A stretch of 64,000 nt of DNA. Source: Eledone cirrhosa. Taxonomy: Eukaryota. A program made the position numbers and the translations under genes. Below are positions 3,703 to 51,515 of the stretch, piece by piece. The stretch spans positions 341,062,001 through 341,126,000 of the forward strand of contig OZ024740.1 in assembly GCA_964016885.1 (NCBI GenBank), written 5' to 3'. Within the stretch, counting starts at the first letter, position 1; the number at the start of each line of letters is the position of its first letter. Under the pieces are notes generated by a model. The model ran no database searches, had not been told where the DNA came from, and saw nothing but the letters and a program-made list of their open reading frames with translations.

Positions 3703-4949
3703 GAATGAGAAATTTGATAGATTGAAGGGATGGGCGGGGAGGAATTGGAAAAAATTTCTTTAGATAAAAATAACAGGTCCATTCATGTTGACATCTCTTG
3801 AAAAACTGTTGGTGCTGGCGTTTTGTGTATGATTTACTTGTTTAGAAACGTGGATGATGGAGCAGTCTACCTGAAATGGAAAAAAAAACGTTTTGTATAA
3901 AGAGCTATACTTGTGTACGTGTGTATGCATGTATGTGTCAGTGTTTGTGTGTGTTATTATACGTCTGTACGAAGCTAAGAAGATATGTGTATGTGTGCTT
4001 GTAAGTACGAAGCTATAAGCAAAAGTATGTTAATATAAGGGTGTGTATGTGTGTATACAGAGCTGTGAAGGAAAAAGTGGAGTGCGCATATTTTGTCGGT
4101 CTGTATTAGTTGTAACAGAATATGTTTCTGAATATATATATATTTGTAATCCATCTAGGAGCTGCTGACAAAAGAGCTCAATATTTTATGACTTTTGCTT
4201 TGTGCAATTCTTGTCACACACACACATATAAATACATAATATTTCACTGTATTTTTTACTACAGAAAATAGTCTAATAATAACAGGGTGTATAAGTCCCC
4301 AGCAGGGGAAAAAATGGGCATCAGCGTGCATGAGAATCGAACCCACACCTCTTATTTTCATGATAAGTGTGCTAGCCAATTATACCAACCTGCTCACCAA
4401 CTTATAATCACTTCAACATATCAGTAATCAACACAAATCTTCCATTGATATGATTTTTCATGTATGTAGGATTGTTTATAAATCAAGGAATCTTGTTATA
4501 TATGTCGTATCAATCTTGGCCTCCCAAAATTAAATATGTTTGATGCTATTGCTGTCATTTTTGATGGCACAGGTCCACTAGTAATGTAATAAAGTCTTTA
4601 GATTCTCACTGAATCAATCAATACCTCAGCTTAACATTTTTTTTAGAATCAATCCCAGCTTTAATTTTTCCCTCTACCACAATCACCAACCACATCCAAC
4701 ACATCCAACACAATTACCACCACCTTACACTTCCATGAGCCATGTACATGTTTGACCCACTAGAAATAGCATCCAAACCTCCTCAAGTTATACCTTGCCT
4801 TCTTAAAAAAGAAGGATGCACTAAACCTGAAAACAAAACAGAATAGTTACAGCTGGAATGTGTTTGATCAAAGGTCTGCATGATCAAAGCTGACCTCAAG
4901 TAAAATAACAATGGCCACAAGAGACTTTCATGTACACCTACTAAACAAT

Positions 4950-13895: not shown

Positions 13896-14203
13896 GACAG
13901 GCTTCTTTACAGTTTTCATCTACCAAATTCACTCACAAGGCATTGGTTGACTTGAAGCTATAGAATAAAACACATCTCCAAAGTGTTGACTGAACCTGAA
14001 ACTATATGGTTGTAAAGTGAACTTCTTAACTACATAACATAGTAATGCTTTCACCTATATATATATATATATATATATGTAATCTGACTTTTTCGAATAT
14101 TAATAATAATATTCGATTCGTTTGCAATTTTGCAAACAAGCCTCAATTTGATAGCCATGTCAGTAGAACGAACACTTCATTCTTGCTCTTGTGTCGGCAT
14201 GCT

Positions 14204-14264
14204 AACAGAACTGCAGACGCTAATGTTTCTGGGTATCACCCTTCATCAGTACAGCTCACTCTTC
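14204..14264 (-). ncRNA. Type I hammerhead ribozyme (predicted cleavage after GUC, between 14216 and 14215)
   Basis: Minus strand reads GAGCTGTA-CTGATGA-A-GGGT-GAT-ACCC-A-GAAAC-ATTAGC-GTC^TGCAGTTC. Stem I GAGCTGTA/TGCAGTTC pairs 8/8 including two G-U. The base of stem II is a non-canonical A.A. Confidence 0.8.
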
Positions 14265-14940
14265 ACCTGCCAACTCTCAGAGCTAGTGAAAATATATGCT
14301 ATTTTCAAAAATACACAGTGACTGACCGGCCCGATTTGCATATTAGCAGACTGGCTGATCAGTCAGATCTGCATATTAGCAGATCCACTGATCAGCCAGA
14401 TTTGTATATCAGCAGACTGGCCAGTCAGTTTCCTGTATACGAGCGATAAATGGCCAGCTTTGCCAAATTCAAATAAAAAAAAAAAGAAAATTTTGCTCTA
14501 CATGGCTGAATACTATAAATGTAATCTGACTTTTTCGAATATTATTAATAAAATTCGATTCGTTTGCAATTTTGCAAACAAGCCTCAATTTTATAGCCAT
14601 GTCAGTAGAATGAACACTTCATTCTTGCTCTTGCGAACAGAACTGCAAAATTGCAAACGAATCGAATGTTATTATTAATATTCGAAAAAGTCAGATTACA
14701 TTTATTGTAGAGCAAAATTTTCTTTTTTATTTGAATTTCGCAAAGCCGGCCATTTATCGCTCATATACAGGAAACTGACTGGCCTGATTTGTATATTAGC
14801 AGACTGGCTGATCAGTGGATCTGCTAATATGCAGATCTGACTGATCAGCTTGTCTTCTAATATGCAAATCAGGCCGGTCAGTCACTGTGTATTTTTGAAA
14901 ATAGCATATATTTTCACTAGCTCTGAGAGTTTGGCAGGTG

Positions 14941-15000
14941 AACAGTGAGCTGTACTGATGAAGGGTGATATCCAGAAACATTAGTGTCTGCAATTCTGTT
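14941..15000 (+). ncRNA. Type I hammerhead ribozyme, second copy (predicted cleavage after 14988)
   Basis: AACAGT-GAGCTGTA-CTGATGA(14955-61)-A-GGGT-GAT-ATCC-A-GAAAC(14975-79)-ATTAGT-GTC^TGCAATTC-TGTT. One stem I mismatch; distal AACA/TGTT extension. Confidence 0.75.
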
Positions 15001-15277
15001 TGCATGCCAACACAAGAGCAAGAATGAAGTGTTCATTCTACTGACATGGCTATAAAATTGAGGCTTGTTTGCAAAATTGCAAACAAATCGAATGTTATCA
15101 TTAATATTCGAAAAAGTCAGATTACATTTATTGTATTCAGCCATGTAGAGCAAAATTTTCTTTTTTTATATATATTTATATTTATACATATGTAATGTAG
15201 CTGAAATTCGTAATAAATATCGGAAGTTGGTAGAGCACTCAGTAGTTGCATTTATATAGTATTTTTTATTACATCTA

Positions 15278-15350
15278 CAGTACATTTTCCAAATACACGT
15301 GTTTCACTGAGATCCTCCCAGTGAAACAGATGTATTTTGAAAATGTACTG
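15278..15350. repeat. ~73-bp inverted repeat (hairpin)
   Basis: cagtacattttccaaatacacgtgtttcactg pairs with cagtgaaacagatgtattttgaaaatgtactg. Confidence 0.85.
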
Positions 15351-15536
15351 CTGATATAAATATATATATATATATATAATTGTATGGTGCTCTCACATTA
15401 AACTGTTTTTGCCACTGACTAACTCATTGTGTGTGCTCTGATATACGGACTTGAACCTGGGAAATACACGTTCTGTAAAATCATTGAGCAAGTGGAAAAT
15501 TTGGCGGGCTAGCACAAATTCAATTTGTCTAGTTCA

Positions 15537-17209: not shown

Positions 17210-17260
17210 TTAATTGCCCTGATGAGTCCTTAATAGGACAAAACATTGTTGGCTAATAAA
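17210..17260 (+). ncRNA. Minimal type I hammerhead motif with G12>A change, followed by AATAAA
   Basis: ATTGCC-CTGATGA-GTCCT-TAAT-AGGAC-AAAAC-ATT-GTT^GGCTAAT-AAA; perfect 5-bp stem II. Confidence 0.65.
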
Positions 17261-34460: not shown

Positions 34461-34815
34461 ATTATTTGTGATTCCGAAGTCTATACTAGTTATTCTCCAT
34501 ACCACATACCTATATTCCAAACTGACACACAAGCTCCCCATACTCCTTACTTCTTTATTTAAATATTATCATCTCTATCTCTACTTCTGACAATTTTGCA
34601 GAGAACTGTCTAATCTAAGGCCCCACATCACATCACCTTACACCACCACAGCTGCCTATGTCCCCACACTCTTCCTTTTGTACATTAACAATCTTTCACT
34701 TCTACTCATATACATTCTTATTAACCTGGGACTTACAAGGAACATCAACATGCAGCCTAGACACCTCATTCCAGACCTACACTGCTTCTTTGAACAGAGA
34801 TCTCTCAAAAACATC

Positions 34816-35981
34816 TTCTGTGCCACACAAAAGGCTTATGGCAAAACTCTCTGCAATGGGTGTGAAGGATGATCTTTTTAACTGGTTGAAGTCCTTCATT
34901 CTCAGTCAAAGAGAGGTAGTCACGGTTCTGGGACAGAATTCCTCACCATATGAGATGTCATCTGGTGTACCACAGGGATCTGTTCTTGGCCCCCTTTTGT
35001 TTGTGGCATATATTAATGACATAGATGCCAACTTAAGGAATGCCACAGTACTAAAGTACACAGACGACATCAAGCTGTACTTTGAGATAAAAAGGACAGA
35101 TCCTGAACACTATAGATCTTGCTTGCAGTCTGACCTGGACACAATGCAACAGTGGATCTCAGACTGGCAACTCAAGCTAGCTGTGGACAAGTGCACCACC
35201 ATGCATTTTGGGAGTAAAAACCCAGCGTCCACATACTCCCTCCACAGCACTAATATCAAGAAGTCTTCCTGTGAACGTGACCTGGGCATTACGGTCAGCA
35301 GCGATTTGCATTGGACGAGGCACGTCTCTAAAATTGTCAAGAGGGCCGAGGGTGTCTTAGCATCACTCAGCAAGACCTTTGTCAGCCGCTCTCCAGATAT
35401 CTATTTAAGGCTGTATACAGCTATGGTGCGACCACACTTAGAATTTGCATCACCAGTCTGGAACCCCTATCTTGCTCAGGACATTGACCGCCTGGAAACT
35501 GTTCAGAGACGTGCAACCAAGCGAATACCCTCCATCAAGCATCTACCATACTCTGAGCGCCTTGCTTCCCTGGGCATGGATTCATTGAAGCTCCGACGCC
35601 TGGCAACTGACTTGGTGAACACCCACAAAATTGTTAACCATGTTGCCAACAACAACCCTGAGTACCTTTTCGATTTCCATGTGTCTAACACACGTGGCCA
35701 TGCCCACAAAGTCAGAAAACAGCACAGTTCCCATGACTTTCGGAAACATTTTTTCACGCTCAGAGTTGCTGAAGCATGGAACAAACTACCTGCATCAGTT
35801 GTTAGCTGTCGAGACACTGCATCCTTTAAGGCCTCCATCCTTCCCGAGATCCGCCAACAGAACAGCTAACACATACACACATGTACTTCTCTGACATTTG
35901 TGTATTATTCTATGTACTATATTGACGAGTTGTAGTGCACCTGAGCACTTTACACAATAATTTCATTATTATTATTATTAT
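34816..35981 (+). mobile_element. CR1/Jockey-group LINE, 5'-truncated, open RT C-terminal frame
   Basis: SVPHKRL...SGVPQGSVLGPLLF...KYTDD...RPHLEFASPVWNPY...WNKLP with an (ATT)n tail; same family as 31390-33278. The N-terminal ~53 aa of ORF 34658 is flanking DNA. Confidence 0.93.
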
Positions 35982-36650: not shown

Positions 36651-39600
36651 GTGGTGGTAGTAATGACAGTGGTGATGATGATGGTAGGGGTAATGACAGT
36701 AGTGGTGGTGATGATGATGGTGGTGGTAATGACAGTGGTGGTGATGACGATGCTGGTCATGATGATGATGATGGTGGTGGTGGTAGAGGTAATGATGATT
36801 CTGGTCATGATGATAATGATGGTGGTGGTAGAGGTAATGACAGTGGTGGTGATGACGATGCTGGTCATGATGAAGGTGTTGGTGGTAGTGGTAATGACAG
36901 TGGTGGTGATGACGATGCTGTCATGATGGTGTTGGTGGTAATGGTAATGACAGTGGTGGCGATGACGATGCTGGTCATGATGGTGTTGGTGGTAGTGGTA
37001 ATGACAGTGGTGGCGATGACGATGCTGGTCATGATGGTGTTGGTGGTAGTGGTAATGACAGTGGTGGTGATGACGATGCTGTCATGATGGTGTTGGTGGT
37101 AGTGGTAATGACAGTGGTGGTGATGACGATGCTGGTCATGATGGTGTTGGTGGTAGTGGTAATGACAGTGGTGGTGATGACGATGCTGTCATGATGGTGT
37201 TGGTGGTAGTGGTAATGACAGTGATGGTGATGACGATGCTGTCATGATGGTGTTGGTGGTAGTGGTAATGACAGTGGTGGTGATGACGATGCTGGTCATG
37301 ATGGTGTTGGTGGTAGTGGTAGTGGTAGTGACAGCGATGACGATGCTGGTCATGATGGTGTTGGTGGTAGTGGTAATGACAGTGGTGGTGATGACGATGC
37401 TGTCATGAAGGTGTTGGTGGTAGTGGTAATGACAGTGATGGTGATGACGATGCTGGTCATGATGGTGTTGGTGGTAGTGGTAGTGGTAATGACAGTGGTG
37501 GTGATGACGATGCTGGTCATGATGGTGTTGGTGGTAGTGGTAGTGGTAATGACAGTGGTGGTGATGACGATGCTGTCATGAAGGTGTTGGTGGTAGTGGT
37601 AATGACAGTGGTGGTGATGACGATGCTGTCATGATGGTGTTGGTGGTAGTGGTAATGACAGTGGTGGTGATGACGATGCTGTCATGATGGTGTTGGTGGT
37701 AGTGGTAATGACAGTGGTGGTGATGACGATGCTGGTCATGATGGTGTTGGTGGTAGTGGTAATGACAGTGGTGGTGATGACGATGCTGGTCATGATGGTG
37801 TTGGTGGTAGTGGTAATGACAGTGGTGGTGATGACGATGCTGTCATGATGGTGTTGGTGGTAGTGGTAATGACAGTGGTGGTGATGACGATGCTGGTCAT
37901 GATGGTGTTGGTGGTAGTGGTAATGACAGTGGTGGTGATGACGATGCTGTCATGATGGTGTTGGTGGTAGTGGTAATGACAGTGGTGGTGATGACGATGC
38001 TGGTCATGATGGTGTTGGTGGTAGTGGTAATGACAGTGGTGGTGATGACGATGCTGTCATGATGGTGTTGGTGGTAGTGGTAATGACAGTGGTGGTGATG
38101 ACGATGCTGGTCATGATGGTGTTGGTGGTAGTGGTAGTGACAGTGGTGGTGATGACGATGCTGTCATGATGGTGTTGGTGGTAGTGGTAATGACAGTGGT
38201 GGTGATGACGATGCTGTCATGATGGTGTTGGTGGTAGTGGTAATGACAGTGGTGGTGATGACGATGCTGGTCATGATGGTGTTGGTGGTAGTGGTAATGA
38301 CAGTGGTGGTGATGACGATGCTGGTCATGATGGTGTTGGTGGTAGTGGTAATGACAGTGGTGGTGATGACGATGCTGTCATGAAGGTGTTGGTGGTAGTG
38401 GTAATGACAGTGATGGTGATGACGATGCTGTCATGATAGTGTTGGTGGTAGTGGTAATGACAGTGGTGGTGATGACGATGCTGTCATGATGGTGTTGGTG
38501 GTAGTGGTAGTGGTAATGACTGTGGTGGTGATGATGATGCTGTCATGATGGTGTTGGTGGTAGTGGTAGTGGTAATGACAGTGGTGGTGATGACGATGCT
38601 GTCATGATGGTGTTGGTGGTAGTGGTAGTGGTAATGACAGTGGTGGTGATGACGATGCTGTCATGATGGTGTTGGTGGTAGTGGTAGTGGTAATGACAGT
38701 GGTGGTGATGATGATGCTGTCATGATGGTGTTGGTGGTAGTGGTAGTGGTAATGACAGTGGTGGTGATGACGATGATGTCATGATGGTGTTGGTGGTAGT
38801 GGTAGTGGTAATGACAGTGGTGGTGATGACGATGCTGTCATGATGGTGTTGGTGGTAGTGGTAGTGGTAATGACAGTGGTGGTGATGACGATGCTGTCAT
38901 GATGGTGTTGGTGGTAGTGGTAGTGGTAATGACAGTGGTGGTGATGATGATGCTGTCATGATGGTGTTGGTGGTAGTGGTAGTGGTAATGACAGTGGTGG
39001 TGATGACGATGCTGTCATGATGGTGTTGGTGGTAGTGGTAATGACAGTGGTGGTGATGACGATGCTGTCATGATGGTGTTGGTGGTAGTGGTAGTGGTAA
39101 TGACAGTGGTGGTGATGACGATGCTGTCATGATGGTGTTGGTGGTAGTGGTAGTGGTAATGACAGTGGTGGTGATGACGATGCTGTCATGATGGTGTTGG
39201 TGGTAGTGGTAGTGGTAATGACAGTGGTGGTGATGACGATGCTGTCATGATGGTGTTGGTGGTAGTGGTAGTGGTAATGACAGTGGTGGTGATGACGATG
39301 CTGTCATGATGGTGTTGGTGGTAGTGGTAGTGGTAATGACAGTGGTGGTGATGACGATGCTGTCATGATGGTGTTGGTGGTAGTGGTAGTGGTAATGACA
39401 GTGGTGGTGATGACGATGCTGTCATGATGGTGTTGGTGGTAGTGGTAGTGGTAATGACAGTGGTGGTGATGATGATGCTGTCATGATGGTGTTGGTGGTA
39501 GTGGTAGTGGTAATGACAGTGGTGGTGATGACGATGCTGTCATGATGGTGTTGGTGGTAGTGGTAATGACAGTGGTGGTGATGACGATGCTGTCATGATG

Positions 39601-42600
39601 GTGTTGGTGGTAGTGGTAGTGGTAATGACAGTGGTGGTGATGACGATGCTGTCATGATGGTGTTGGTGGTAGTGGTAGTGGTAATGACAGTGGTGGTGAT
39701 GACGATGCTGTCATGATGGTGTTGGTGGTAGTGGTAGTGGTAATGACTGTGGTGGTGATGATGATGCTGTCATGATGGTGTTGGTGGTAGTGGTAGTGGT
39801 AATGACAGTGGTGGTGATGACGATGCTGTCATGATGGTGTTGGTGGTAGTGGTAATGACAGTGGTGGTGATGACGATGCTGTCATGATGGTGGTAGTGGT
39901 AGTGGTAATGACAGTGGTGGTGATGACGATGCTGTCATGATGGTGTTGGTGGTAGTGGTAGTGGTAATGACAGTGGTGGTGATGACGATGCTGTCATGAT
40001 GGTGTTGGTGGTAGTGGTAGTGGTAATGACAGTGGTGGTGATGACGATGCTGGTCATGATGGTGTTGGTGGTAGTGGTAATGGTAATGACAGTGGTGGTG
40101 ATGACGATGCTGTCATGAAGGTGTTGGTGGTAGTGGTAATGACAGTGGTGGCGATGACGATGCTGGTCATGATGGTGTTGGTGGTAGTGGTAATGACAGT
40201 GGTGGTGATGACGATGCTGTCATGATGGTGTTGGTGGTAGTGGTAATGACAGTGGTGGCGATGACGATGCTGGTCATGATGGTGTTGGTGGTAGTGGTAA
40301 TGACAGTGGTGGTGATGACGATGCTGGTCATGATGGTGTTGGTGGTAGTGGTAATGACAGTGGTGGTGATGACGATGCTGGTCATGATGGTGTTGGTGGT
40401 AGTGGTAGTGGTAATGACAGTGGTGGTGATGACGATGCTGGTCATGATGGTGTTGGTGGTAGTGGTAATGACAGTGGTGGTGATGACGATGCTGTCATGA
40501 TGGTGTTGGTGGTAGTGGTAATGACAGTGGTGGTGATGACGATGCTGGTCATGATGGTGTTGGTGGTAGTGGTAGTGGTAATGACAGTGGTGGTGATGAC
40601 GATGCTGTCATGATGGTGTTGGTGGTAGTGGTAATGACAGTGGTGGTGATGACGATGCTGTCATGATGGTGTTGGTGGTAGTGGTAATGACAGTGGTGGT
40701 GATGACGATGCTGGTCATGATGGTGTTGGTGGTAGTGGTAATGACAGTGGTGGTGATGACGATGCTGTCATGATGGTGTTGGTGGTAGTGGTAATGACAG
40801 TGGTGGTGATGACGATGCTGTCATGATGGTGTTGGTGGTAGTGGTAATAACAGTGGTGGTGATGACGATGCTGGTCATGATGGTGGTAGTGGTAGTGGTA
40901 ATGACAGTGGTGGTGATGACGATGCTGTCATGAAGGTGTTGGTGGTAGTGGTAGTGACAGTGGTGGTGATGACGATGCTGGTCATGATGGTGTTGGTGGT
41001 AGTGGTAATGACAGTGGTGGTGATGACGATGCTGTCATGAAGGTGTTGGTGGTAGTGGTAATGACAGTGGTGGTGATGACGATGCTGTCATGATGGTGTT
41101 GGTGCTAGTGGTAGTGACAGTGGTGGTGATGACGATGCTGTCATGAAGGTGTTGGTGGTAGTGGTAGTGACAGTGGTGGTGATGACGATGCTGTCATGAA
41201 GGTGTTGGTGGTAGTGGTAATGACAGTGGTGGTGATGACGATGCTGGTCATGATGGTGTTGGTGGTAGTGGTAATGACAGTGGTGGTGATGACGATGCTG
41301 GTCATGATGGTGTTGGTGGTAGTGGTAATGACAGTGGTGGTGATGACGATGCTGGTCATGATGGTGTTGGTGGTAGTGGTAGTGGTAATGACAGTGGTGG
41401 TGATGACGATGCTGTCATGATGGTGTTGGTGGTAGTGGTAATGACAGTGGTGGTGATGACGATGCTGTCATGATGGTGTTGGTGGTAGTGGTAATGACAG
41501 TGGTGGTGATGACGATGCTGTCATGAAGGTGTTGGTGGTAGTGGTAATGACAGTGGTGGTGATGACGATGCTGTCATGAAGGTGTTGGTGGTAGTGGTAA
41601 TGACAGTGGTGGTGATGACGATGCTGTCATGAAGGTGTTGGTGGTAGTGGTAGTGACAGTGGTGGTGATGACGATGCTGTCATGAAGGTGTTGGTGGTAG
41701 TGGTAATGACAGTGGTGGTGATGACGATGCTGTCATGAAGGTGTTGGTGGTAGTGGTAGTGACAGTGGTGGTGATGACGATGCTGTCATGATGGTGTTGG
41801 TGGTAGTGGTAGTGGTAATGACAGTGGTGGTGATGACGATGCTGTCATGATGGTGTTGGTGGTAGTGGTAGTGGTAATGACAGTGGTGGTGATGACGATG
41901 CTGTCATGATGGTGTTGGTGGTAGTGGTAGTGGTAATGACAGTGGTGGTGATGACGATGCTGTCATGATGGTGTTGGTGGTAGTGGTAATGACAGTGGTG
42001 GTGATGACGATGCTGTCATGATGGTGTTGGTGGTAGTGGTAATGACAGTGGTGGTGATGACGATGCTGTCACGATGGTGTTGGTGGTAGTGGTAATGACA
42101 GTGGTGGTGATGACGATGCTGTCATGATGGTGTTGGTGGTAGTGGTAATGACAGTGGTGGTGATGACGATGCTGTCATGATGGTGTTGGTGGTAGTGGTA
42201 GTGGTAATGACAGTGGTGGTGATGACGATGCTGTCATGATGGTGTTGGTGGTAGTGGTAGTGGTAATGACAGTGGTGGTGATGACGATGCTGTCATGATG
42301 GTGTTGGTGGTAGTGGTAGTGGTAATGACAGTGGTGGTGATGACGATGCTGTCATGATGGTGTTGGTGGTAGTGGTAGTGGTAATGACAGTGGTGGTGAT
42401 GACGATGCTGTCATGATGGTGTTGGTGGTAGTGGTAATGACAGTGGTGGTGATGACGATGCTGTCATGATGGTGTTGGTGGTAGTGGTAATGACAGTGGT
42501 GGTGATGACGATGCTGTCATGATGGTGTTGGTGGTAGTGGTAATGACAGTGGTGGTGATGACGATGCTGTCATGATGGTGTTGGTGGTAGTGGTAATGAC

Positions 42601-45600
42601 AGTGGTGGTGATGACGATGCTGTCATGATGGTGTTGGTGGTAGTGGTAATGACAGTGGTGGCGATGACGATGCTGGTCATGATGGTGTTGGTGGTAGTGG
42701 TAGTGGTAATGACAGTGGTGGTGATGACGATGCTGTCATGAAGGTGTTGGTGGTAGTGGTAATGACAGTGGTGGTGATGATGATGCTGTCATGAAGGTGT
42801 TGGTGGTAGTGGTAAAGACAGTGGTGGTGATGACGATGCTGGTCATGATGGTGTTGGTGGTAGTGGTAATGACAGTGGTGGTGATGACGATGCTGTCATG
42901 ATGGTGTTGGTGGTAGTGGTAGTGACAGTGGTGGTGATGACGATGCTGGTCATGATGGTGTTGGTGGTAGTGGTAATGACAGTGGTGGTGATGACGATGC
43001 TGTCATGATGGTGTTGGTGGTAGTGGTAATGACAGTGGTGGTGATGACGATGCTGTCATGATGGTGTTGGTGGTAGTGGTAGTGGTAGTGACAGCGATGA
43101 CGATGCTGTCATGAAGGTGTTGGTGGTAGTGGTAATGACAGTGGTGGTGATGACGATGCTGTCATGAAGGTGTTGGTGGTAGTGGTAATGACAGTGGTGG
43201 TGATGACGATGCTGTCATGATGGTGTTGGTGGTAGTGGTAATGACAGTGGTGGTGATGACGATGCTGTCATGAAGGTGTTGGTGGTAGTGGTAATGACAG
43301 TGGTGGTGATGACGATGCTGTCATGAAGGTGTTGGTGGTAGTGGTAATGACAGTGGTGGTGATGACGATGCTGTCATGATGGTGTTGGTGGTAGTGGTAG
43401 TGACAGTGGTGGTGATGACGATGCTGGTCATGATGGTGTTGGTGGTAGTGGTAATGACAGTGGTGGTGATGACGATGCTGTCATGATGGTGTTGGTGGTA
43501 GTGGTAATGACAGTGGTGGTGATGACGATGCTGTCATGATGGTGTTGGTGGTAGTGGTAGTGGTAGTGACAGCGATGACGATGCTGTCATGAAGGTGTTG
43601 GTGGTAGTGGTAATGACAGTGGTGGTGATGACGATGCTGTCATGAAGGTGTTGGTGGTAGTGGTAATGACAGTGGTGGTGATGACGATGCTGTCATGATG
43701 GTGTTGGTGGTAGTGGTAATGACAGTGGTGGTGATGACGATGCTGGTCATGATGGTGTTGGTGGTAGTGGTAATGACAGTGGTGGTGATGACGATGCTGG
43801 TCATGATGGTGTTGGTGTTAGTGGTAATGACAGTGGTGGTGATGACGATGCTGGTCATGATGGTGTTGGTGGTAGTGGTAATGACAGTGGTGGTGATGAC
43901 GATGCTGTCATGATAGTGTTGGTGGTAGTGGTAATGACAGTGGTGGTGATGACGATGCTGTCATGAAGGTGTTGGTGGTAGTGGTAATGACAGTGGTGGT
44001 GATGACGATGCTGGTCATGATGGTGTTGGTGGTAGTGGTAATGACAGTGGTTGTGATGACGATGCTGGTCATGATGGTGTTGGTGGTAGTGGTAATGACA
44101 GCGGTGGTGATGACGATGCTGTCATGATGGTGTTGGTGGTAGTGGTAATGACAGTGGTGGTGATGACGATGCTGTCATGATAGTGTTGGTGGTAGTGGTA
44201 ATGACAGTGGTGGTGATGACGATGCTGTCATGAAGGTGTTGGTGGTAGTGGTAATGACAGTGGTGGTGATGACGATGCTGGTCATGATGGTGTTGGTGGT
44301 AGTGGTAATGACAGTGGTGGTGATGACGATGCTGGTCATGATGGTGTTGGTGGTAGTGGTAATGACAGTGGTGGTGATGACGATGCTGGTCATGATGGTG
44401 TTGGTGGTAGTGGTAATGACAGTGGTGGTGATGACGATGCTGTCATGATGGTGTTGGTGGTAGTGGTAATGACAGTGGTGGTGATGACGATGCTGTCATG
44501 ATGGTGTTGGTGGTAGTGGTAATGACAGTGGTGGTGATGACGATGCTGTCATGAAGGTGTTGGTGGTAGTGGTAATGACAGTGGTGGTGATGATGATGCT
44601 GTCATGAAGGTGTTGGTGGTAGTGGTAATGACAGTGGTGGTGATGACGATGCTGTCATGATGGTGTTGGTGGTAGTGGTAATGACAGTGGTGGTGATGAC
44701 GATGCTGGTCATGATGGTGTTGGTGGTAGTGGTAGTGGTAATGACAGTGGTGGTGATGACGATGCTGTCATGATGGTGTTGGTGGTAGTGGTAATGACAG
44801 TGGTGGTGATGACGATGCTGTCATGAAGGTGTTGGTGGTAGTGGTAATGACAGTGGTGGTGATGACGATGCTGGTCATGATGGTGTTGGTGGTAGTGGTA
44901 ATGACAGTGGTGGTGATGACGATGCTGTCATGATGGTGTTGGTGGTAGTGGTAATGACAGTGGTGGTGATGACGATGCTGTCATGAAGGTGTTGGTGGTA
45001 GTGGTAATGACAGTGGTGGTGATGACGATGCTGTCATGAAGGTGTTGGTGGTAGTGGTAATGACAGTGGTGGTGATGACGATGCTGTCATGATGGTGTTG
45101 GTGGTAGTGGTAATGACAGTGGTGGTGATGACGATGCTGGTCATGATGGTGTTGGTGGTAGTGGTAGTGGTAATGACAGTGGTGGTGATGACGATGCTGT
45201 CATGATGGTGTTGGTGGTAGTGGTAATGACAGTGGTGGTGATGACGATGCTGTCATGAAGGTGTTGGTGGTAGTGGTAATGACAGTGGTGGTGATGACGA
45301 TGCTGGTCATGATGGTGTTGGTGGTAGTGGTAATGACAGTGGTGGTGATGACGATGCTGTCATGATGGTGTTGGTGGTAGTGGTAGTGACAGTGGTGGTG
45401 ATGACGATGCTGTCATGATGGTGTTGGTGGTAGTGGTAATGACAGTGGTGGTGATGACGATGCTGTCATGATGGTGTTGGTGGTAGTGGTAATGACAGTG
45501 GTGGTGATGACGATGCTGTCATGATGGTGTTGGTGGTAGTGGTAATGACAGTGGTGGTGATGACGATGCTGTCATGATGGTGTTGGTGGTAGTGGTAATG

Positions 45601-48600
45601 ACAGTGGTGGTGATGACGATGCTGTCATGATGGTGTTGGTGGTAGTGGTAATGACAGTGGTGGTGATGACGATGCTGTCATGATGGTGTTGGTGGTAGTG
45701 GTAATGACAGTGGTGGTGATGACGATGCTGTCATGATGGTGTTGGTGGTAGTGGTAATGACAGTGGTGGCGATGACGATGCTGGTCATGATGGTGTTGGT
45801 GGTAGTGGTAGTGGTAATGACAGTGGTGGTGATGACGATGCTGTCATGAAGGTGTTGGTGGTAGTGGTAATGACAGTGGTGGTGATGATGATGCTGTCAT
45901 GAAGGTGTTGGTGGTAGTGGTAAAGACAGTGGTGGTGATGACGATGCTGGTCATGATGGTGTTGGTGGTAGTGGTAATGACAGTGGTGGCGATGACGATG
46001 CTGGTCATGATGGTGTTGGTGGTAGTGGTAGTGGTAGTGGTAATGACAGTGGTGGTGATGACAATGCTGTCATGAAGGTGTTGGTGGTAGTGGTAGTGGT
46101 AATGACAGTGGTGGTGATGACGATGCTGTCATGAAGGTGTTGGTGGTAGTGGTAGTGGTAATGACAGTGGTGGTGATGACGATGCTGTCATGAAGGTGTT
46201 GGTGGTAGTGGTAATGACAGTGGTGGTGATGACGATGCTGTCATGAAGGTGTTGGTGGTAGTGGTAATGACAGTGGTGGTGATGACGATGCTGTCATGAT
46301 GGTGTTGGTGGTAGTGGTAGTGACAGTGGTGGTGATGACGATGCTGGTCATGATGGTGTTGGTGGTAGTGGTAATGACAGTGGTGGTGATGACGATGCTG
46401 TCATGATGGTGTTGGTGGTAGTGGTAATGACAGTGGTGGTGATGACGATGCTGTCATGATGGTGTTGGTGGTAGTGGTAGTGGTAGTGACAGCGATGACG
46501 ATGCTGTCATGAAGGTGTTGGTGGTAGTGGTAATGACAGTGGTGGTGATGACGATGCTGTCATGAAGGTGTTGGTGGTAGTGGTAATGACAGTGGTGGTG
46601 ATGACGATGCTGTCATGATGGTGTTGGTGGTAGTGGTAATGACAGTGGTGGTGATGACGATGCTGGTCATGATGGTGTTGGTGGTAGTGGTAATGACAGT
46701 GGTGGTGATGACGATGCTGGTCATGATGGTGTTGGTGTTAGTGGTAATGACAGTGGTGGTGATGACGATGCTGGTCATGATGGTGTTGGTGGTAGTGGTA
46801 ATGACAGTGGTGGTGATGACGATGCTGTCATGATAGTGTTGGTGGTAGTGGTAATGACAGTGGTGGTGATGACGATGCTGTCATGAAGGTGTTGGTGGTA
46901 GTGGTAATGACAGTGGTGGTGATGACGATGCTGGTCATGATGGTGTTGGTGGTAGTGGTAATGACAGTGGTTGTGATGACGATGCTGGTCATGATGGTGT
47001 TGGTGGTAGTGGTAATGACAGCGGTGGTGATGACGATGCTGTCATGATGGTGTTGGTGGTAGTGGTAATGACAGTGGTGGTGATGACGATGCTGTCATGA
47101 TAGTGTTGGTGGTAGTGGTAATGACAGTGGTGGTGATGACGATGCTGTCATGAAGGTGTTGGTGGTAGTGGTAATGACAGTGGTGGTGATGACGATGCTG
47201 GTCATGATGGTGTTGGTGGTAGTGGTAATGACAGTGGTGGTGATGACGATGCTGGTCATGATGGTGTTGGTGGTAGTGGTAATGACAGTGGTGGTGATGA
47301 CGATGCTGGTCATGATGGTGTTGGTGGTAGTGGTAATGACAGTGGTGGTGATGACGATGCTGTCATGATGGTGTTGGTGGTAGTGGTAATGACAGTGGTG
47401 GTGATGACGATGCTGTCATGATGGTGTTGGTGGTAGTGGTAATGACAGTGGTGGTGATGACGATGCTGTCATGAAGGTGTTGGTGGTAGTGGTAATGACA
47501 GTGGTGGTGATGATGATGCTGTCATGAAGGTGTTGGTGGTAGTGGTAATGACAGTGGTGGTGATGACGATGCTGTCATGATGGTGTTGGTGGTAGTGGTA
47601 ATGACAGTGGTGGTGATGACGATGCTGGTCATGATGGTGTTGGTGGTAGTGGTAGTGGTAATGACAGTGGTGGTGATGACGATGCTGTCATGATGGTGTT
47701 GGTGGTAGTGGTAATGACAGTGGTGGTGATGACGATGCTGTCATGAAGGTGTTGGTGGTAGTGGTAATGACAGTGGTGGTGATGACGATGCTGGTCATGA
47801 TGGTGTTGGTGGTAGTGGTAATGACAGTGGTGGTGATGACGATGCTGTCATGATGGTGTTGGTGGTAGTGGTAATGACAGTGGTGGTGATGACGATGCTG
47901 TCATGAAGGTGTTGGTGGTAGTGGTAATGACAGTGGTGGTGATGACGATGCTGTCATGAAGGTGTTGGTGGTAGTGGTAATGACAGTGGTGGTGATGACG
48001 ATGCTGTCATGATGGTGTTGGTGGTAGTGGTAATGACAGTGGTGGTGATGACGATGCTGGTCATGATGGTGTTGGTGGTAGTGGTAGTGGTAATGACAGT
48101 GGTGGTGATGACGATGCTGTCATGATGGTGTTGGTGGTAGTGGTAATGACAGTGGTGGTGATGACGATGCTGTCATGAAGGTGTTGGTGGTAGTGGTAAT
48201 GACAGTGGTGGTGATGACGATGCTGGTCATGATGGTGTTGGTGGTAGTGGTAATGACAGTGGTGGTGATGACGATGCTGTCATGATGGTGTTGGTGGTAG
48301 TGGTAATGACAGTGGTGGTGATGACGATGCTGTCATGATGGTGTTGGTGGTAGTGGTAATGACAGTGGTGGTGATGACGATGCTGTCATGATGGTGTTGG
48401 TGGTAGTGGTAATGACAGTGGTGGTGATGACGATGCTGTCATGATGGTGTTGGTGGTAGTGGTAATGACAGTGGTGGTGATGACGATGCTGTCATGATGG
48501 TGTTGGTGGTAGTGGTAATGACAGTGGTGGTGATGACGATGCTGTCATGATGGTGTTGGTGGTAGTGGTAATGACAGTGGTGGTGATGACGATGCTGTCA

Positions 48601-51515
48601 TGATGGTGTTGGTGGTAGTGGTAATGACAGTGGTGGCGATGACGATGCTGTCATGATGGTGTTGGTGGTAGTGGTAATGACAGCGGTGGTGATGACGATG
48701 CTGTCATGATGGTGTTGGTGGTAGTGGTAATGACAGTGGTGGTGATGACGATGCTGTCATGATGGTGTTGGTGGTAGTGGTAATGACAGTGGTGGTGATG
48801 ACGATGCTGTCATGATGGTGTTGGTGGTAGTGGTAATGACAGTGGTGGTGATGACGATGCTGTCATGATGGTGTTGGTGGTAGTGGTAATGACAGTGGTG
48901 GTGATGACGATGCTGTCATGATGGTGTTGGTGGTAGTGGTAATGACAGTGGTGGTGATGACGATGCTGGTCATGATGGTGGTAGTGGTAGTGGTAATGAC
49001 AGTGGTGGTGATGACGATGCTGTCATGATGGTGTTGGTGGTAGTGGTAATGACAGTGGTGGTGATGACGATGCTGTCATGATGGTGTTGGTGGTAGTGGT
49101 AATGACAGTGGTGGTGATGACGATGCTGTCATGATGGTGTTGGTGGTAGTGGTAGTGGTAATGACAGTGGTGGTGATGACGATGCTGTCATGATGGTGTT
49201 GGTGGTAGAGGTAATGACAGTGGTGGTGATGACGATGCTGTCATGATGGTGTTGGTGGTAGTGGTAATGACAGCGGTGGTGATGACGATGCTGTCATGAT
49301 GGTGTTGGTGGTAGTGGTAATGACAGTGGTGGTGATGACGATGCTGTCATGATGGTGTTGGTGGTAGTGGTAATGACAGTGGTGGTGATGACGATGCTGT
49401 CATGATGGTGTTGGTGGTAGTGGTAGTGGTAATGACAGTGGTGGTGATGACGATGCTGTCATGATGGTGTTGGTGGTAGTGGTAATGACAGCGGTGGTGA
49501 TGACGATGCTGGTCATGATGGTGTTGGTGGTAGTGGTAATGACAGTGGTGGTGATGACGATGCTGTCATGATGGTGTTGGTGGTAGTGGTAATGACAGCG
49601 GTGGTGATGACGATGCTGTCATGATGGTGTTGGTGGTAGTGGTAATGACAGTGGTGGTGATGACGATGCTGTCATGATGGTGTTGGTGGTAGTGGTAATG
49701 ACAGTGGTGGTGATGACGATGCTGTCATGATGGTGTTGGTGGTAGTGGTAATGACAGTGGTGGTGATGACGATGCTGTCATGATGGTGTTGGTGGTAGTG
49801 GTAATGACAGTGGTGGTGATGACGATGCTGTCATGATGGTGTTGGTGGTAGTGGTAGTGACAGCGATGACGATGCTGTCATGATGGTGTTGGTGGTAGTG
49901 GTAATGACAGTGGTGGTGATGACGATGCTGGTCATGATGGTGTTGGTGGTAGTGGTAATGACAGTGGTGGTGATGACGATGCTGTCATGATGGTGTTGGT
50001 GGTAGTGGTAATGACAGTGGTGGTGATGACGATGCTGTCATGATGATGTTGGTGGTAGTGGTAATGACAGTGGTGGTGATGACGATGCTGTCATGATGGT
50101 GTTGGTGGTAGTGGTAATGACAGTGGTGGTGATGACGATGCTGGTCATGATGGTGTTGGTGGTAGTGGTAATGACAGTGGTGGTGATGACGATGCTGTCA
50201 TGATGGTCTTGGTGGTAGTGGTAATGACAGTGGTGGTGATGACGATGCTGTCATGATGGTGTTGGTGGTAGTGGTAATGACAGTGGTGGTGATGACGATG
50301 CTGGTCATGATGGTGTTGGTGGTAGTGGTAATGACAGTGGTGGTGATGACGATGCTGTCATGATGGTCTTGGTGGTAGTGGTAATGACAGTGGTGGTGAT
50401 GACGATGCTGTCATGATGGTGTTGGTGGTAGTGGTAGTGACAGCGATGACGATGCTGTCATGATGGTGTTGGTGGTAGTGGTAATGACAGTGGTAGTGAT
50501 GACGATGCTGTCATGATGGTGTTGGTGGTAGTGGTAATGACAGTGGTGGTGATGACGATGCTGTCATGATGGTGTTGGTGGTAGTGGTAATGACAGTGGT
50601 GGTGATGACGATGCTGTCATGATGGTGTTGGTGGTAGTGGTAGTGACAGTGGTGGTGATGACGATGCTGTCATGATGGTGTTGGTGGTAGTGGTAATGAC
50701 AGTGGTGGTGATGACGATGCTGTCATGATGGTGTTGGTGGTAGTGGTAGTGACAGTGGTGGTGATGACGATGCTGTCATGATGGTGTTGGTGGTAGTGGT
50801 AATGACAGTGGTGGCGATGACGATGCTGTCATGATGGTGTTGGTGGTAGTGGTAATGACAGTGGTGGCGATGACGATGCTGTCATGATGGTGTTGGTGGT
50901 AGTGGTAATGACAGCGGTGGTGATGACGATGCTGTCATGATGGTGTTGGTGGTAGTGGTAATGACAGTGGTGGTGATGACGATGCTGGTCATGATGGTGT
51001 TGGTGGTAGTGGTAGTGACAGTGGTGGTGATGACGATGCTGTCATGATGATGTTGGTGGTAGTGGTAATGACAGTGGTGGTGATGACGATGCTGTCATGA
51101 TGGTGTTGGTGGTAGTGGTAATGACAGTGGTGGTGATGACGATGCTGTCATGATGGTGTTGGTGGTAGTGGTAATGACAGTGGTGGTGATGACGATGCTG
51201 TCATGATGGTGTTGGTGGTAGTGGTAATGACAGTGGTGGTGATGACGATGCTGTCATGATGGTGTAGGTGGTAGTGGTAATGACAGTGGTGGTGATGACA
51301 ATGCTGTCATGATGGTGTTGGTGGTAGTGGTAATGACAGTGGTGGTGATGACGATGCTGGTGGTGGTAGTGACAGTGGTGGTGATGATGATGCTGGTGGT
51401 GGTAGTGACAGTGGTGGTGATGACGATGCTGGTGGTGGTAGTGACAGTGGTGGTGATGACGATGCTGGTGGTGGTAGTGACAGTGGTGGTGATGACGATG
51501 CAGGTCATGATGATG
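36638..51515. repeat. ~14.9-kb satellite/minisatellite array with a 53-bp basic unit and 54-, 59- and 60-bp variants
   Basis: Unit TCATGATGGTGTTGGTGGTAGTGGTAATGACAGTGGTGGTGATGACGATGCTG, with variants +G and +GTGGTA; roughly 270 units. Confidence 0.97.

Follow-up and report, generated by a model that had tools for sequence, protein, structure and literature searches.

Head-to-head insertion of a 438-nt hammerhead repeat in Eledone cirrhosa, and a family-wide excess of copy ends at the predicted ribozyme cut

Structure of the insertion

The window, a stretch of 64,000 nucleotides of the Eledone cirrhosa genome (contig OZ024740.1, positions 341,062,001 to 341,126,000), contains at 14073–15166, within (TA)n, a head-to-head insertion of a 438-nt repeat with a type I hammerhead motif. 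Repeat positions are counted from the predicted cleavage site: numbering opens with r1, directly 3′ of GUC, and closes with r438, the C of that triplet, on a natural copy (L003) that was rotated to begin at the cut. The 5′ end of an arm is the furthest point to which it matches the repeat, and microhomology is therefore credited to both arms. The insertion is composed of the following features:

14056–14078, no strand: left target flank, (TA)n; the right flank (15167–15190) is AT-rich
14073–14647, minus strand: left arm, 1.3 monomers of the 438-nt repeat, from r1 round to r143, RNA sense on the minus strand
14201–14266, minus strand: putative type I hammerhead motif of the left arm, intact and read through; core CUGAUGA..GAAA..GUC at 14249–14216, predicted cut 14216/14215
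14631–14632, minus strand: site of a 10-nt deletion (about r17–r26) in the left arm, placed by alignment, 16 nt from the junction
14644–14647, no strand: junction, a self-complementary 4-nt TGCA common to left-arm r1–r4 and right-arm r82–r85
14644–15166, plus strand: right arm, 1.2 monomers of the 438-nt repeat, from r82 round to r178, RNA sense on the plus strand
14938–15003, plus strand: second putative hammerhead motif, in the right arm, intact and read through; core 14955–14988, predicted cut 14988/14989
15132–15166, plus strand: 35-nt extension (r144–r178), right arm only; in size and one-sidedness it resembles the Penelope “tail” described in PMC8557442 and PMC11167929

A preliminary description of this DNA had placed the start of the left arm at the base 3′ of the GUC cut, and the sequence agrees exactly: AACAGAACTGCA stops at 14647, immediately 3′ of the predicted cut, while in the first monomer AACAGAACTGCA runs on as AACAGAACTGCA|GAC (14204–14218), the minus strand of which reads GUC^UGCAG. 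The 4-nt TGCA that it reported as common to both arms is equally present. This overlap leaves five possible places for the breakpoint, the cut site being the outermost, with the left arm extended maximally. The same r1/r82 junction is found again, with other arm lengths, in three further loci (L284, L285, and L287). The two arms differ at 16 of the 319 bases compared, and for this reason the junction is not an assembly fold-back. Contigs from four unlabelled public runs are too short to span the junction and speak neither for nor against it. No target duplication is discernible at the flanks of the insertion.

Two smaller features were noted in and beside the insertion. In the plus-strand arm, a 31-nt piece at 14786–14816 (about r236–r266), lying within internal 33-nt repeats, fits the repeat better when reversed, and may represent a local flip or a conversion inside the long hairpin. 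Just to the right of the insertion, at 15260–15368, two 53-nt arms, 79% complementary, stand 3 nt apart.

The repeat family and its hammerhead motif

The 3.0-Gb genome contains about 3000 candidate loci of the repeat (2956), and a 27-mer anchor has 1640 exact matches in it. With a period of 438 nt, arms reach about 775 nt; both arms in the window contain a single complete motif, and two cut sites are passed in some copies (L006, L008, L096, and L117). All six frames contain stops, and the repeat has no open frame, neither RT nor GIY-YIG. TA repeats follow 237 of 332 arm ends, and of 170 arms from the unbiased set described below, 126 end at an inverted join.

The motif is assigned to type I on its CUGANGA, GAAA, and NUH core together with helices I–III and an open end in helix I, and these helices form under constrained folding: a long bulged helix I, a helix II of 4 bp, and a helix III of 2 bp. 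A strict motif expression fits the hammerhead in 21 of 26 copies, the other five carrying the motif with small changes. Rfam scans did not detect the hammerhead of the 438-nt repeat, which is identified by motif and fold; Rfam miRNA matches were discarded as a reflection of microsatellites and of the inversion. The minimum-energy fold is predicted to be inactive, CUGAUG pairing with CAUUAG; when three copies were folded, it was lower in energy than the active fold by 6.0, 12.0, and 6.7 kcal/mol. In its common form the helix III strand is self-complementary, with a self-duplex of −8.8 kcal/mol (−2.9 in the left copy of the window), and such helices are suited to dimeric folding according to PMC4209133.

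Judged from its sequence, the repeat fits a Penelope-like non-LTR retrozyme, and as an element it is unremarkable within a known class. Metazoan non-LTR retrozymes (PMC7229834; bioRxiv 10.64898/2026.07.22.740005) have units of 150–450 nt and are likewise non-coding, low in GC, and devoid of LTRs; each unit has a single type I hammerhead, copies number in the thousands, and mobilisation is probably by PLE proteins. Unlike their long tandem arrays, the copies here are mostly dispersed, shorter than two units, and in the majority head to head. Both linear and circular RNAs are described for the metazoan retrozymes, and animal retrozyme RNAs of unit length have been reported (PMC7229834); the evidence on the present repeat comes from genomic DNA. 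The word “inverted” is absent from the accessible text of PMC7229834, and neither there nor in that of the bioRxiv paper are inversions or end positions discussed.

Two recurrent variants of the family were seen. In one, the retrozyme contains at r103–r126 (for example in L007, L013, L022, L050, and L119) a dispersed repeat about 190 nt long, its 3′ end joined to r109 and its upstream junction variable; it occurs in 39 of 357 loci by a strict motif and in 7 of 86 unbiased loci, ARAGORN found no tRNA in it in four loci, and it is either a recurrent targeted insertion or the mark of a composite subfamily. The second is a recurrent symmetric inversion, r9/r21, at a near-palindrome around GCATGC (r9–r24), which yields nearly perfect hairpin insertions.

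Where copies end relative to the cut

A single junction proves little, and the preliminary description, which took this one as indirect evidence of ribozyme activity, had itself proposed tabulating the ends of all genomic copies against the GUC. Our unbiased set is the first 100 of the 1640 anchor matches in genome order, corresponding to 86 distinct loci, aligned to a profile with jumps allowed. Fragments interrupted by the nested repeat at r109 were not scored as ends, and L002–L030, picked for full length, were excluded from the rates with the exception of L012. A sample chosen for upstream GC (30 of 113 matches taken) was left out of the rates because its condition selects symmetric r9/r21 junctions, and was kept among the 234 junctions treated below.

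In the unbiased set, with 126 arms passing r44, the position named beforehand, r1, has 7 ends in 98 passes where 0.5 are expected (Poisson P about 1e-6). The end rate per nucleotide is 0.6% in r31–44, 0.5% in r16–30, and 1.5% in r2–15, and it falls to 0.2% in both r424–438 and r409–423 (0.22% over r409–438), the overall rate being 0.5%; r1–16 holds 33 ends and r423–438 three. The footprint is not a spike: it rises as a step and continues as a 16-nt shoulder (r1–r16), with local peaks also at r9, r14, and r16, and this shoulder coincides with the 3′ strand of stem I. Roughly one arm in four stops in r1–r16, and the rest read through.

Genome-wide counts were made with patterns requiring mismatches one and three bases upstream, and were corrected by one rule on inspected loci; the pattern cores are similarly likely to be intact across the five positions (0.40–0.52).

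r1: 92 matches, 24 of 30 true, about 70 copies
r3: 64 matches, 23 of 30 true, about 49 copies
r437 (two bases upstream of r1): 33 matches, 17 of 30 true (14 distinct), about 15 copies
r424 (fifteen upstream): 18 matches, 9 of 18 true, about 9 copies
r31 (thirty downstream): 18 matches, 7 of 18 true, about 7 copies

By these estimates r1 exceeds r424 and r31 8- to 10-fold, and its difference from r3 is not significant (about 70 against about 49, P 0.07); the cut is read through in 1900 copies genome-wide. Two further samples were scored. One chosen for upstream C (92 of 245 matches taken) has 2 ends at r1, 32 in r1–16, and 19 in r423–438, five of the latter at r437–438; the other, 24 ends read by eye, has 1 at r1, 16 in r1–17, 1 at r438, and 7 in r391–437. 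A heap of 5′ ends at query position 388 was set aside as an artefact of the query end and the scoring threshold. A literature search by title and abstract opening, covering few subscription journals, gave no report that copies end at the hammerhead cut of a PLE or retrozyme.

We consider it likely that this footprint in the copy ends is a record of RNA self-cleavage in the cell, as read from the genomic copies. Several points weigh against the cleavage reading: r1 does not stand clearly above r3, the upstream-C sample is weaker at r1, only one end of the sample read by eye falls exactly there, the shoulder coincides with a strand of stem I, the predicted minimum-energy fold is inactive, and in PMC11167929 no RNA reads start at the cut and cleavage is dispensable for insertion.

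It is unlikely, in our judgement, that the footprint reflects stalling of reverse transcriptase as it melts stem I (r1–r15 with r388–r404) of uncleaved RNA, the cut site being merely the helix end and cleavage unneeded. The raised zone r1–r16 matches the 3′ side of stem I exactly (pairing probability 0.85), the local peaks at r9, r14, and r16 lie inside it, and the inactive fold is predicted to be the more stable. The top position, r1, is however the helix exit, where few pairs are left; the end rate drops at r429–r435, where the predicted uncleaved fold has a further helix, and a longer hairpin at r220–r339 (pairing 0.71–0.77) shows only 0.4–0.75% ends per nucleotide.

We give still less weight, and indeed very little, to an RNA 5′ end placed at r1 by a transcription start or a protein nuclease instead of the ribozyme. 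Our evidence comes from DNA copies, and pLTRs may bear promoter-like motifs (PMC3846280). Nevertheless, the step falls within a base or two of the predicted scissile bond, and a G just upstream, the mark of a copied cap, is not in excess (12 of 92 rows by manual count).

TGCA microhomology at the junction

The repeat has six TGCA sites per unit, which allows the contribution of the microhomology to be separated from that of the cut. In the unbiased and full-length sets together, r1 has 7 ends in 137 passes and the other five sites 1 in 679. Among the 24 true r1 ends, examined by eye, 8 adjoin host flank, mostly (TA)n, without an inverted arm, and TGCA is used by only 4. Where an inversion junction does have an r1 end (n = 20), the overlap is 4–5 bases in 7 and 0–3 in 13. 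TGCA is not enough to explain the r1 ends; it does select the partner site, the r1/r82 junction recurring in three loci.

That ends are random, and the window junction a coincidence of TGCA microhomology, was the outcome by which the preliminary description would have abandoned its reading, and we now regard it as extremely improbable. Microhomology is strongly enriched at junctions, the r1/r82 pair does recur, and the r1 peak of the upstream-C sample is weak; against this stand the near absence of ends at the five other TGCA sites, the many r1 ends that have no inverted partner, and the genome-wide excess of r1 over r424 and r31.

How the inversion forms

The outer, 3′ ends of the arms are concentrated at three positions, r180 (80), r143 (68), and r148 (67), among 434 arms. 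We pooled 234 distinct junctions from all sets, of which 123 have both outer ends at these main sites and 111 have at least one end elsewhere. In 116 of the 123, r143/148 is paired with r180, and 7 are otherwise. The arms are not nested, the r180 arm being the one that reaches further 5′ in 50 and its partner in 64, with 2 equal, and the lengths of the two arms are uncorrelated. Microhomology of at least 2 bases is found at 136 of the 234 junctions (17% by chance). Start-site pairing was not reported in the literature searched by title and abstract opening, with few subscription journals included.

In a test of 147 arm pairs, 51 share at least one rare variant; such variants are common to both arms in 15.7% against 2.7% when shuffled (maximum 5.3%), about six times as often. 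This points to one source lineage, as judged from the sequences, and later conversion between the arms could be another source of common variants. When one arm ends at r437–r8, its partner runs past the cut in 17 of 55; on this ground, together with the uncorrelated lengths, the arms are not always derived from one cleaved molecule. In a comparison bearing on the same molecule, partners stop before the cut in 38 of 55, against 31 of 72 (P 0.004) and, with another control, 40 of 71 (P 0.2), the rows being non-independent.

The template switch of the preliminary description has to be divided. Its first half, reverse transcription of a self-cleaved RNA, is supported, though indirectly, by the footprint described above; its second half, a simple switch, is not. 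A switch to another sense RNA would produce a direct repeat, not an inversion. A single cDNA that reaches the cleaved 5′ end and then switches template or folds back on itself would give an inverted arm; in its favour are the genuine r1 end and TGCA overlap, the rare variants common to the arms, the recurrence of palindromic junctions (r9/r21), and the self-priming proposed for PLE inversions (PMC3846280). In the window, however, the right arm passes the outer end of the left by 35 nt, more than the left cDNA contains, and a start at r143 cannot yield an end at r180; a fold-back from an r180 start requires the r180 arm to be the one further 5′, which is so in only 50 of 116. Because fold-back needs nesting, it fails for most junctions including that of the window; the nesting count has already largely refuted it, and we hold it to be quite improbable. 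The template switch survives only as the annealing, by TGCA, of a finished cDNA end to a second, separately primed cDNA.

Twin priming with joining by microhomology is the best fit, and a likely one. In the simplest model, we infer one cDNA per start site: each of the two target strands acts as a primer, and the 3′ ends of the cDNAs become joined. PMC11167929 is in agreement, its PLE protein extending both target strands from two internal start sites that bound the tail, with a dimer predicted. At the window junction, the left arm would on balance have come to end at the predicted cut by run-off of the reverse transcriptase on self-cleaved RNA, its end then annealing by TGCA to the second, separately primed cDNA.

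The steps may be set out as follows. The repeat, which carries the conserved, putative type I hammerhead motif, inserts in (TA)n. A Penelope-type protein with RT and GIY-YIG, acting in trans, would cut both target strands and prime a cDNA at each of the two sites, r143/148 and r180. The arm-end rate jumps at r1 and is high through r16; the excess, about one pass in five, may stem from cleaved templates that are copied fully, copied a few bases short, or trimmed, and the read-through copies from uncleaved multimers or ligated circles. The 3′ ends of the cDNAs would then pair by 1–4 nt of microhomology, each templating the second strand of the other.

The insertions of the family could, more broadly, be a fossil read-out of the Penelope cycle, which we put forward tentatively and as one proposal, with some doubt about the whole. 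It would have a PLE dimer prime both cut strands at two fixed RNA sites, the cDNAs joining head to head, and the hammerhead act as a leaky stop, affecting about one pass in five, with the inactive fold as a switch that keeps the ribozyme in most copies. If the cleavage reading is true, the step at the scissile bond shows that cleaved RNA serves as a template for insertion; counting ends in this way is applicable to any genome with such repeats and needs no bench work, and the rule of one arm per start site offers a testable account of the long-known inverted copy and one-sided tail.

Penelope-type partners and related systems

Frames of 900–1100 codons with RT and GIY-YIG are present in the genome. 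No autonomous element with the 438-nt repeat as pLTR was found by DNA or protein comparison in 40 of the 150 listed GIY-YIG loci (10596 candidates); two loci (L368 and L396) have a repeat copy near the GIY-YIG frame, though not at the pLTR position. Minimal hammerhead cores of their own, beside GIY-YIG frames, were also observed in several Penelope-like families (L367, L380, L384, L387, L389, L391, L392, and L397).

In LINE-1 twin priming, two target nicks prime two cDNAs, which microhomology joins head to head; both are copied from one RNA, the second from a more upstream position, so that the arms do not overlap. Here, by contrast, both arms start at fixed sites 32–37 nt apart and copy the same region.

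Likenesses are also found in EN+ Penelope-like elements, which according to PMC8557442, PMC3846280, and PMC11167929 form 5′-truncated partial tandems with an inverted, 5′-truncated copy at the 5′ end, have a tail of 30–40 nt at one end only and two internal start sites, and combine AT-rich or (TA)n targets with a hammerhead whose helix III is palindromic. They differ in that the repeat here has no ORF, and the asymmetry of the tail is counted here (116 of 123). In the Anolis data of PMC11167929 no reads are found at the cut, whereas the 5′ ends of copies pile up at it here. R2 elements with HDV-like ribozymes (PMC3774820) are similar in that the ribozyme cut sets the 5′ junction and chance microhomology primes the second strand; both ribozyme and element class are different, and the R2 cut is the full-length end, whereas here a minority of passes stop.

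Elsewhere in the window, a 53-nt unit is repeated in tandem at 36718–51467 (272 copies with 94% matches and a strong G skew), and two coding frames were found, a LINE-type endonuclease and RT frame of 732 codons at 482–2680 on the minus strand and an RT frame of 416 codons at 34619–35869 on the plus strand. Two Rfam matches are weak: Hammerhead_1 at 17213–17257 on the plus strand (22.6 bits, under the gathering score of 34) and a tRNA at 4322–4394 on the minus strand (29.3 bits, at threshold).
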